Shown here in pieces: positions 1 to 4,379 of a stretch of 64,000 nt of DNA. Numbering within the stretch: the first letter of the stretch is position 1; each line of letters begins with the position of its first letter. A program made the position numbers and the translations under genes. Below the pieces are notes generated by a model that saw only the letters and a list, made by a program, of their open reading frames with translations, was not told the DNA's origin and did no database searches. Source of the DNA: Pirellulales bacterium (GTDB lineage Bacteria; Planctomycetota; Planctomycetia; Pirellulales; JADZDJ01); assembly GCA_963719205.1 (NCBI GenBank), contig CAVRAW010000004.1:17765-81764 (forward strand), read 5' to 3'.

Positions 1-2820
<2,820 letters not shown>

Positions 2821-2927
2821 GAGTGCATCCGTTGGCTAAATAAAAAAACGCGTGCTGTTTTCCGCCGGGCCGCCTGGTGGGACTGCCCGCAAAACCAGCC
2901 CGCGAGTGGTAATAAAGCGAAACGGCG

Positions 2928-2956
2928 AGTCTAACAACGCGCGAAAACAGCGTCAA
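2928..2956 (-). promoter_or_regulatory. sigma70-type promoter of ppdK
   Basis: Minus strand reads TTGACG-17 nt-TAGACT about 110 nt upstream of the start codon. Confidence 0.65.
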
Positions 2957-3021
2957 GGAAGCGGCGAGAAACGTGCTGAAAGTGGCTGTTTTCGTAGGCC
3001 GGTTGCCGAGGTGAAGTGTGC

Positions 3022-3060
3022 GCAACATAAAACCCAGGAACGAAGAATCGTTCCTGGGTT
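3022..3060 (-). terminator. intrinsic terminator ending an unannotated minus-strand transcript
   Basis: Perfect 13-bp inverted repeat aacccaggaacga/tcgttcctgggtt (3031-3060) running into TTTTATGTT on the minus strand. Confidence 0.7.
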
Positions 3061-3240
3061 GGGTGGAAACCCGAAAGTTGGAGGCACGCTGGAGGGCGCG
3101 AGAGGAAAACTTGCAAACCAGACACCTCGATCAGCAAACCAACCGCTGAATATCCAAAATGGTGGAGCGTGTTGCGATCGATATCCTTGTGTCTAGTTAG
3201 CAAGTTTCCGTCTAAGTAAGGAAGCGGAAACGGCCGCGGA
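3022..3240 (-). ncRNA. candidate small RNA (long rod hairpin, CCUCC-loop hairpin, terminator)
   Basis: Nested complementary segments 3104-3114/3200-3209, 3119-3125/3189-3195 and 3127-3132/3176-3181. G-U pairs favour the minus strand. No convincing ORF. Confidence 0.5.
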
Positions 3241-3311
3241 TTGTTACAGCCATTTTCGATCTAATTTCCCCCATGACGCCAAGCGGCCCGGACCGCTAAA
3301 ATCCCGGGGCT

Positions 3312-4379
3312 ATGTACCGACCATCGACACTCGCCTCCCAGCCCCCTCTGCCCTTGCTGATCACCGGCATTTCCGGCGTGCCGGGCTACAACGCCCTGCC
3401 CTACATTCTCGAGCGCTATCCGGGCCAGGTAATCGGCATCCGCCAGCGCGACAACTGGCGGCTGACCGGCCCGGGCATCGAAGTCTGCGATGCCGAAGAT
3501 CGCCAGCGACTGGAGCAATTGTTCGATCAGTACCGCTTCGCGGCCGTGCTGGATTGCGCGGGCAACTGCGCGCTTAAGTCGTGCGAACTCGATCCGGCGA
3601 TGGCCTGGCGAATCAACGTCGAGGGCGTGCGCAACTTGTTGGAAATCTGCCTCGAGCGCCAGGCCCGATTCGTGCACCTGTCGATCGACCTGGTCTTCTC
3701 CGGCACAGCCGCCGGCGGCCACGTCGAAACCGATCCCACCGATCCCGTGACGGTGTACGGCAAAACAATGGTGGCGGCGGAGGAGATGATTCTGGCGGCA
3801 GGCAGCAAGCGGCAGGCGGCTGGCAGCCAGCAAGCAACGGCCAGCAGCCAGCAGCCTGCCGCCTGCATCCTCCGCATTTCGCTCCCGATGGGTATCAGCT
3901 TCAACGGCCACGCCGGCGCGATCGACTGGATTCAATCGCGCTTCAAAAAATCGAAGCCCGCCACGCTGTACTTCGACGAAATCCGCACGCCCACCTACAC
4001 CGATTGCCTGAACGAACTGTGCGAAGTGGTGCTGGGCAGCCAATTATCGGGCCTGTACCACGCCGGCGGCCCGCGCCGCTTGAGCTTGTTCAACATCGCG
4101 CAAGTGATCAACCGCGTCGGCGGCTACGACCCCAAGCTTTTGATGGGCTGCCCGCGCCGGTTGGCCGGGCCCATCCCGCCGCGCGCCGGCGATGTATCGC
4201 TCAACTCAAGTAAGCTCGCCGCGGCTCTTGGCTACGACCCGTTCGATCCCTGGCCGCTGGCCGAGGAATTTGTCCCCACGCATCCCGAGTGGCACTTCGA
4301 GCGCAACACTTTTTGCGGCTCCAAACACCTGCTGGCCGAAGTGCTGTACCGAAACCCTGCGAAAGCGACCAACGGTTAA
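3312..4379 (+). CDS. RmlD/RfbD-like (dTDP-4-dehydrorhamnose reductase family) extended SDR
   Basis: ITGISGVPG Rossmann motif, HLSIDLVFSG, YGKTM in place of YxxxK, DEIRTPTY and GLYHAGG. Confidence 0.85.
   Translation: MYRPSTLASQPPLPLLITGISGVPGYNALPYILERYPGQVIGIRQRDNWRLTGPGIEVCDAEDRQRLEQLFDQYRFAAVLDCAGNCALKSCELDPAMAWRINVEGVRNLLEICLERQARFVHLSIDLVFSGTAAGGHVETDPTDPVTVYGKTMVAAEEMILAAGSKRQAAGSQQATASSQQPAACILRISLPMGISFNGHAGAIDWIQSRFKKSKPATLYFDEIRTPTYTDCLNELCEVVLGSQLSGLYHAGGPRRLSLFNIAQVINRVGGYDPKLLMGCPRRLAGPIPPRAGDVSLNSSKLAAALGYDPFDPWPLAEEFVPTHPEWHFERNTFCGSKHLLAEVLYRNPAKATNG
3794..3866 (+). repeat. degenerate 7-bp array inside the SDR gene
   Basis: ggcggca ggcagca agcggca ggcggct ggcagcc ... agcagcc agcagcc tgccgcc, encoding AAGSKRQAAGSQQATASSQQPAA. 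Confidence 0.75.

Follow-up and report, generated by a model that had tools for sequence, protein, structure and literature searches.

A candidate small non-coding RNA gene between ppdK and a divergent reductase gene in a Pirellulales bacterium

Background

Does the divergent gap of approximately 600 nucleotides (nt) between ppdK and a reductase gene of a Pirellulales bacterium house an RNA gene of its own and, if so, from which strand, between which ends and to what effect would it be transcribed? The gap lies in a 64,000-nt stretch of contig CAVRAW010000004.1, hereafter the window, whose numbering is used for all coordinates unless another contig is named. ppdK occupies the minus strand, its catalytic core beginning at MIYLFSK near position 2706, and the product of the plus-strand open reading frame (ORF) 3312-4379 has matches to RmlD_sub_bind (E 1e-32) and to the NAD-dependent epimerase family. 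An initial annotation of this DNA, in which the reductase was called a short-chain dehydrogenase/reductase (SDR), had placed a standalone, independently terminated small RNA (sRNA) in the gap and had proposed that it acts on ribosome-binding sites through an anti-Shine-Dalgarno (anti-SD) loop. All genomes compared here are assemblies from uncultured organisms. The own genome of the window (G000) measures 3.28 Mb and is 79.9% complete, and negative results of whole-genome searches are to be read against that figure; G002 and G003 are genomes of the same genus (g1), and G005 and G008 belong to a second genus (g3).

As judged from the sequence comparisons reported below, the minus strand from about 3248 to about 3024 is probably a self-contained gene for a non-coding RNA of approximately 190 nt. 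The same gene model taken together with an extracytoplasmic function (ECF)-type promoter stands a little better than even, and a trans-acting, base-pairing mode of action against ribosome-binding sites is a tentative proposal, possible if rather doubtful. In the proposed model, the ECF-type promoter at 3248-3216 would start the RNA near 3213, at the base of a 110-nt rod, the RNA would end at the 13-bp terminator 3060-3031 and its U-tract, and ppdK would be read from a sigma-70-type promoter of its own.

Results and discussion

Structure, conservation and covariation of the element

Folding of both strands of 3022-3240 gave -85.2 kcal/mol for the minus strand (z -7.27) and -81.3 kcal/mol for the plus strand (z -4.60), and none of 200 shuffled sequences reached an equal or better value on either strand. 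The nested helices of the rod described in the initial annotation (3104-3114/3200-3209, 3119-3125/3189-3195 and 3127-3132/3176-3181) were found both in the minimum-energy fold and in the consensus of three genomes, and the gcgc-CCUCCA-gcgu and gggu-UUCC-accc hairpins, a second CCUCC and the 13-bp terminator that it had listed are all in the sequence.

The whole intergenic DNA was used to search 40 relatives, and the element was matched in only two of them, G002 (89% identity) and G003 (73%). The conservation begins sharply at TGTAACA (3248) and stops at about 3022, with flanks that are approximately 35% identical. On the reductase side, 25 of 65 positions of the flank are identical to the window in G002 and 22 of 67 in G003, compared with 33 of 33 and 26 of 33 in the 5' block 3216-3248 and with 50 of 57 and 50 of 56 in the apical domain of the rod. 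After the terminator, the identity in G002 is 15/39, and this part of G003 is outside the alignment.

The three-sequence alignment comprises 64 consensus pairs, with 96.3% of the cells paired. Five of these pairs are changed on both sides, a count reached by 2 of 500 column shuffles, and sliding the partners by 1 to 3 columns gave 0 to 2 such pairs. The outer rod and the small hairpin contribute two double-sided changes each, and the terminator contributes one. Rod helix 2, with 20 pairs and 98.3% of its cells paired, shows two of them in G003 (A-U to U-A and A-U to G-C). The 15 pairs of helices 3 and 4 are unchanged across the three genomes; as these apical helices never vary, they carry no weight either way for the structure. 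A partial fourth version, from a relative, was found on a contig of 238 nt (X1), which covers 2933-3147 plus 23 more letters. It differs from the window at only 2 positions in 3060-3147, versus 16 in 2933-3023, and adds two compensatory pairs in the terminator (3039/3052, A-T to G-C, and 3042/3049, G-C to T-A). Its end carries the CGCUCCACC sequence of the apical domain, together with a loop that is G003-like.

These compensatory changes bear on the possibility that the gap contains no RNA gene at all and is instead a conserved regulatory region or palindrome acting as DNA, for instance an operator array between the divergent genes. Such a region would suit the divergent intergenic place, and long inverted repeats can bind dimeric regulators. 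However, the compensatory changes retain pairing and not sequence, the G-U pairs are strand-asymmetric, a canonical terminator with a U-tract is present and the promoter motif is common to unrelated genes, so that we consider a purely DNA-level role highly improbable.

A coding function was rejected, since the ORF of 90 amino acids at 2931-3203 (minus strand) runs across the terminator, carries two separate 1-nt indels in G003 and shows blockwise conservation without a codon period. The element is present as a single copy in G000, where the other matches had E values of at least 0.6, except for the terminator's own inverted arm, and where fuzzy searches with the 34-nt and 24-nt 5' blocks returned the own locus alone. 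A dispersed repeat is thereby ruled out.

A covariance model of the three sequences recognised G000, G002 and G003 only, both among 11 genomes of the family and among 151 genomes of the order; a weak match in G005 (E 0.012) turned out to be the terminator of another gene. An exact-pattern scan returned five stretches in the genome collection, namely those of G002 and G003 and three from unrelated taxa matching the pattern alone, and five stretches in metagenome contigs, none of which was homologous outside the pattern. In G001, although it is assigned to this genus too, no more than some tens of bases separate the start of the reductase gene from the ppdK promoter, and such an RNA is absent. 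Among the genomes searched, the predicted RNA has so far been found in one genus only.

Strand and ends of the predicted transcript

The minus strand is favoured as the functional strand because the T-tract occurs there only, because five consensus pairs are G-U pairs on that strand, and because it has the better z-score and the promoter. The initial annotation had remarked that mismatches become G-U pairs on the minus strand, which is borne out by the consensus at column pairs 4/219, 8/113, 21/99, 42/85 and 120/151; all five would become C-A mismatches if the plus strand were read.

The terminator at 3060-3031 of the minus strand is the sole terminator-like site within 2600-3450. Seven of its 13 stem pairs are G-C, and TTATGTT comes next. 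The tail GGGTTTTATGT is invariant in alignment A1, and the longer GGGTTTTATGTTGCGC is identical in the window, G002 and G003.

At the other end, the conserved 33-nt block TGTAACAATCCGCGGCCGTTTCCGCTTCCTTAC recurs upstream of other genes with both ends retained and a variable middle. In G002 and G003, the gene that follows encodes a secreted protein rich in His, Cys and Asn, and in G007 the product of the downstream gene has a signal-peptide-like N-terminus. With an AAC-core -35 box and a CG-core -10 box, arranged as TGTAAC-N16-CGCT and shared by a small set of genes, positions 3216-3248 resemble an ECF-sigma-type promoter (-35 GTAAC, -10 CGCT), with A/T-rich sequence just upstream. The closest likeness is to the promoters of ECF group 16: PMC3420878 gives the consensus tGTAACc-N16-CGAA and, for EcfF of B. 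japonicum, a start 6 bp past the -10 box, and PMC8315932 gives TGTAAC-N17-CGAA for BcrS of Brucella melitensis. The -35 GTAAC, the spacer of about 16 nt, the -10 box starting with CG and, as these two sources describe them, small regulons of envelope or oxidative-stress genes are shared features (PMC3420878, PMC8315932). The -10 box of the element is nevertheless CGCT(TCC) and not CGAA, and no sigma/anti-sigma operon autoregulated through the motif was found; the promoter thus resembles those of ECF16, and membership of that group is not claimed.

From the promoter geometry and by analogy with EcfF, transcription is predicted to start near 3213 (Table 1). If the 5' block is a promoter, the transcript would run from about 3213 to about 3024 and measure approximately 190 nt, rather than cover all of 3022-3240; the extent given in the initial annotation is therefore narrowed at its 5' side.

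Table 1. Predicted features of the candidate RNA gene (window coordinates)
Feature	Position	Strand	Basis or remark
Promoter block TGTAACA-N15-CGCTTCCTTAC	3216..3248	-	Conservation and recurrence of the motif
Predicted transcription start, ~6-10 nt past CGCT, at the foot of the rod	3212..3214	-	Promoter geometry, EcfF analogy
Rod of ~110 nt, stacked helices with small internal loops between them	3101..3210	-	Fold and consensus
Apical domain, invariant blocks UCGAUCGCAACACGCUCCACCAUU and AGCGGUUGGUUUGCUGAUCGA flanking a variable terminal loop	3127..3182	-	Alignment
Hairpin GCGC-CCUCCA-GCGU	3086..3100	-	Stem retained in G002; loop sequence not conserved
C/U-rich single-stranded linker GCCUCCAACUUUC, then hairpin GGGU-UUCC-ACCC (3061-3072)	3061..3085	-	
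Intrinsic terminator with 13-bp stem, 4-nt loop and tail UUUUAUGUU	3024..3060	-	Terminator scan

The same evidence bears on an alternative raised by the initial annotation, in which an RNA read from the plus strand would expose GGA motifs in its loops (GGUGGA twice, and GGAGG) and titrate a CsrA paralogue. Nine CsrA (PF02599) paralogues, all over the curated cut-off, are encoded in G000, the two plus-strand GGUGGA motifs, which are the complements of CUCCACC and UUUCCACCC, are invariant, and the plus strand folds well (z -4.6). Nevertheless, this strand has no terminator, since the hairpin is followed by TTGGGTGG instead of a T-tract, and no conserved promoter, and conservation past the terminator is low (15/39 in G002). 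The minus strand is indicated by promoter, terminator and G-U pairs alike, the five G-U pairs turning into C-A mismatches on the plus strand, and the conserved TAAAAT box 11 nt ahead of the ATG belongs to the RmlD-like gene itself. The conserved GGA sites number only two, and CsrB/RsmY-type sponges carry far more. We regard a plus-strand sponge as extremely improbable. A sponge of this type was rejected for either strand, as G002 and G003 retain none of the window's four GGA motifs on the minus strand and the two conserved ones are on the plus strand, which has neither terminator nor promoter.

A putative regulon sharing the promoter motif

The genome of the window contains seven sites of TGTAACA-N15-CGCT, compared with a mean of 0.78 and a maximum of 5 for 40 permuted-word controls and with 3 in the reversed sequence. 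Read against the backwards control, the numbers of sites were 10 vs 2 in G002, 10 vs 0 in G003 and 12 vs 0 in G007, so that the motif is enriched in four of the five genomes checked (G000, G002, G003 and G007) and marginal in G001. Several of the sites are orthologous between genomes. The six further sites of G000 (C2:30177, C3:414114, C3:526033, C3:919978, C3:920201 and C5:575009) are located 27-95 nt upstream of start codons. Encoded downstream of them are a protein with RTX repeats, a small secreted protein rich in Cys, a thioredoxin-like protein and a DUF6166 protein, the last with a PEP-CTERM protein behind it, as well as two tiny basic ORFs in tandem. In the relatives, most sites are upstream of ORFs with signal-peptide-like N-termini, as judged by inspection, and the motif is often found before paralogous small His/Cys-rich secreted proteins. 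Together, the sites form a putative alternative-sigma regulon, and the own genome encodes at least 11 sigma factors of the ECF type. The RNA would be a non-coding member of an envelope- or redox-stress regulon, because the motif precedes genes for signal-peptide-like products, among them Cys/His-rich, thioredoxin-like and RTX-repeat proteins.

The tandem pair of tiny ORFs deserves a separate mention. At C3:919978-920420 of G000, two tandem units of approximately 223 nt each comprise the promoter motif, a AAAGGAAAGG ribosome-binding site and a highly basic ORF of 34 codons (MPDG.RNRRFSKNAAKRAWYARHRA...). Nine nucleotides of the promoter spacer, CCGTCTGGC, are exactly complementary to the start-codon region GCCAGACGG. 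Copies of these units were also found in G002, G003 and G001.

Independence from the flanking genes

The promoter that the initial annotation had assigned to ppdK (TTGACG-17-TAGACT) was found at 2956-2928 of the minus strand, downstream of the terminator. In the form TTCCTTGACG-N17-TA(G/C/A)ACTCGC it is kept in all 10 family genomes aligned, including those that are element-free. In G002, a gene for an Imm5-like putative immunity protein of 139 amino acids (L010:1027-1446; PF21805, E 1.5e-27) separates the terminator from the ppdK promoter; the insertion occurs in G002 only, and no toxin gene adjoins it within the stretch examined. On the other side, the reductase has a sigma-70-like promoter ATGACG-18-TAAAAT at 3273-3302 (plus strand), the TAAAAT box of which is located 11 nt before the ATG (3297-3314) and is kept in G002 and G003. 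With this box in place, the reductase does not have the element as its leader either, and the distance of 11 nt implies that the reductase mRNA would be leaderless or nearly so. At the sequence level, the unit thus possesses what is expected of an independent sRNA, namely its own apparent promoter, its own terminator and a conservation confined to the unit, and its proposed separation from ppdK is supported also by the insertion in G002.

It could still be asked whether the element is a cis-acting leader, an attenuator or riboswitch whose conditional read-through drives ppdK or, in G002, the inserted gene. It is co-oriented with ppdK, its terminator is 75 nt upstream of the ppdK promoter, and the Imm5-like ORF of G002 begins about 50 nt past a weakened terminator and has no obvious promoter of its own. 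The initial annotation had also pointed to a possible switch, in which GUUUCCG pairs alternatively with CGGAAAC. The complementarity is indeed there in the window, but the 5' arm lies within the promoter block, so that the pairing relies on promoter DNA, and G003 changes both arms without retaining pairing; as the GUUUCCG arm belongs to the promoter spacer, it would not be transcribed if the promoter is correctly assigned. Moreover, the ppdK promoter is present in 10 of 10 family genomes, including the element-free G001, G009 and G010, no Rfam riboswitch was matched, and the fold ensemble contains no antiterminator competing against the 13-bp stem. A ppdK riboswitch or attenuator was consequently rejected, given the own promoter of ppdK and the alternative pairing that is not conserved, and a cis-acting role of any kind appears very unlikely.

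The start of ppdK itself varies between genomes. In G002, G008, G009 and G010 the gene starts approximately 40 codons before the core, with a conserved basic extension MATVTKRR(K/S)KS.... In the window, the ATG at 2831 is out of frame with the core owing to a length difference of 1 nt relative to G002 (2706-2831, minus strand), and the extension forms an ORF of 40 amino acids (41 codons with the stop) that ends in ATGA on the ATG of the core. The extension of G003 is out of frame just past its MIYYFSK motif, and frameshifted pieces of ppdK occur in several of these metagenome-assembled genomes; the frame break may be either an assembly error or a real frameshift. Within the ppdK leader, at 2840-2905 of the minus strand, a long stem-loop is followed by U7 (-32.8 kcal/mol, z -2.2). 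A GC-rich stem with a T-run is found there in seven of the 10 family genomes (the window, G002, G003, G001, G005, G008 and G010) and is not clear in G004, G006 and G009. This stem-loop, which has no Rfam match, may be an attenuator.

Comparison with known RNA families

A permissive scan of 2500-3500 on both strands with Rfam 15 (E up to 10) gave four matches, the best with an E value of 2.2, and no family reached its gathering threshold in this region. Two of the matches overlap the element and are to microRNA models, with 15.3 bits (threshold 120) and 14.2 bits (threshold 62). Being neither an Rfam match nor a dispersed repeat, the element agrees with its initial description as an undescribed RNA.

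6S RNA (RF00013) was considered for its size class and its fold dominated by a long irregular rod, and was rejected. RF00013 had no match in the region nor, at E values up to 1, in the own genome, and none in five relatives either, so that the model may be blind in this clade. In the consensus, the pairing partner of the 5' end is column 114 of 221 instead of the 3' end, and the element differs from 6S RNA in its extra hairpins and terminator, its restriction to one genus and its stress-type promoter.

RsaE/RoxS of Firmicutes and AbcR of Rhizobiales are sRNAs with C-rich or anti-SD motifs. Similarly, the CUCC, CCUCC and UCCACC sequences in loops and linkers of the element could mask ribosome-binding sites of the GGAG type; however, its exposed CCUCC is not conserved, its conserved CUCCACC is partly paired and there is no homology.

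MicA and RybB are sigma-E (ECF)-dependent sRNAs of enterobacteria, and together with MicL they have a short single-stranded 5' seed. The element shares with these three RNAs a separate promoter within an ECF-type regulon that otherwise drives envelope proteins, an intrinsic terminator and, presumably, the role of a repressing arm of a stress response. It differs in having no sequence or Rfam relation to them, in being much longer and more highly structured, with a 110-nt rod, and in its planctomycete host, in whose genome (79.9% complete) Hfq was not matched. For MicL, the dependence on sigma-E in enterobacteria is given in PMC4102768.

Possible mode of action

In the proposed mechanism, the C/U-rich CGCUCCACC at the apex, the linker and UUUCCACCC ahead of the terminator would pair with purine-rich ribosome-binding regions of target mRNAs, much as sigma-E-dependent sRNAs of enterobacteria act. 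UCCACC occurs twice, once in the apical blocks, which include CGCUCCACC, and once in GGUUUCCACCCAACCCAGG, which is located before the terminator and is invariant. The linker is unpaired with a probability of some 0.97-0.99 both in the window and in G002, and all versions, including the RNAs of genus g3 described below, retain a C/U-rich, mostly unpaired sequence between rod and terminator. These stretches are compatible with loose pairing to ribosome-binding sites and are not evidence for such pairing. The specific seed of the initial annotation was not upheld: G002, G003 and X1 have all lost the anti-SD CCUCCA loop of 3086-3099, the whole hairpin 3086-3100 being replaced in G003 by a different hairpin that is 18 nt larger, and the second CCUCC is lost in G003.

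Several observations weigh against parts of the model preferred here. Conservation and covariation were seen with two related genomes, the latter as compensatory changes at 5 of 64 pairs, but this support, while real, is thin, because it comes from three full versions and one half version, all close kin. As to the promoter, its -10 box is CGCT and the published one CGAA, the motif of G001 is barely over its control (6 vs 4), the motif is absent from the 1.5 kb upstream of all 12 Sigma70_r4_2 loci of the own genome, and none of 30 distinct motif sites in G001, G002, G003 and G007 precedes a sigma gene on inspection of the ORFs. As to the mechanism, fully exposed CCUCC motifs are not conserved, and the apical CUCCACC is only partly accessible (mean unpaired probability 0.31-0.39, and 0.46-0.80 for the motif before the terminator). 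No match to Hfq (PF17209) was obtained in the own genome, 79.9% complete, and the RNAduplex energies computed for three genomes, with the leader of ppdK and the 5' end of the SDR gene as partners, were within those of 100 shuffles each, by what is a crude method. Finally, both arms of the apical helices are invariant, an observation no less compatible with a platform for protein binding than with a seed.

The same minus-strand gene could therefore be thought to produce a protein-binding or decoy RNA, with the apical domain and its GUUUGC bulge as the platform. The differences of G002 and G003 in the apical domain are confined to the terminal loop, and helices 3 and 4 (15 pairs) never vary on both arms, while the outer rod and the terminator do. 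The partial exposure of the conserved motifs points the same way, as does a genome without an Hfq match and, with nine CsrA paralogues, rich in RNA-binding regulators. On the other hand, no partner gene stands alongside the element in any genome, its neighbours being the RmlD-like reductase and ppdK, the four GGA motifs of the minus strand are kept neither in G002 nor in G003, and invariance in three close kin may reflect little time for change. We judge this role unlikely, and base pairing with mRNAs remains the preferred, if tentative, mode of action of the minus-strand RNA.

A syntenic unit in a second genus

The same gap contains a unit on the minus strands of two genomes of genus g3 (L088:357-577 in G005 and L012:1756-1997 in G008). 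There, GTAACA-N15-CGCT with A/T-rich sequence upstream is followed by approximately 190 nt conserved between the two genomes, and the unit ends with a C/U-rich tail, a terminator-like hairpin and a weak U-tract. Its body differs, and the covariance model of the g1 element does not recognise it. The g3 unit may be either an RNA diverged beyond recognition or the result of a slot that was refilled. One could imagine that the gap is a cradle for sRNAs under one ECF-type promoter and that the apical domain of the g1 RNA docks a dedicated protein, such as a CsrA paralogue or a chaperone replacing Hfq; we consider this distinctly improbable. If the cradle existed, the regulatory input would have been kept while the RNA body was swapped and, if the docking held as well, the element would represent a new class of ECF-controlled ribonucleoprotein regulator in Planctomycetes.

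Conclusions

We regard the candidate as a previously undescribed family among RNAs of a known kind, from a phylum with few annotated sRNAs: Table 1 of a 2022 review lists eight annotated sRNA families for the Planctomycetes-Verrucomicrobia-Chlamydiae group versus 345 for Proteobacteria (PMC9029176). Regulatory RNAs of planctomycetes are almost unknown, and this candidate has cleanly delimited ends and a promoter motif that marks out a small putative regulon of secreted-looking products. If confirmed, the logic of the sigma-E envelope-stress response, in which repair proteins are combined with a repressing sRNA, would reach a distant phylum, and the motif provides a handle for finding more RNAs driven by alternative sigma factors in such genomes.

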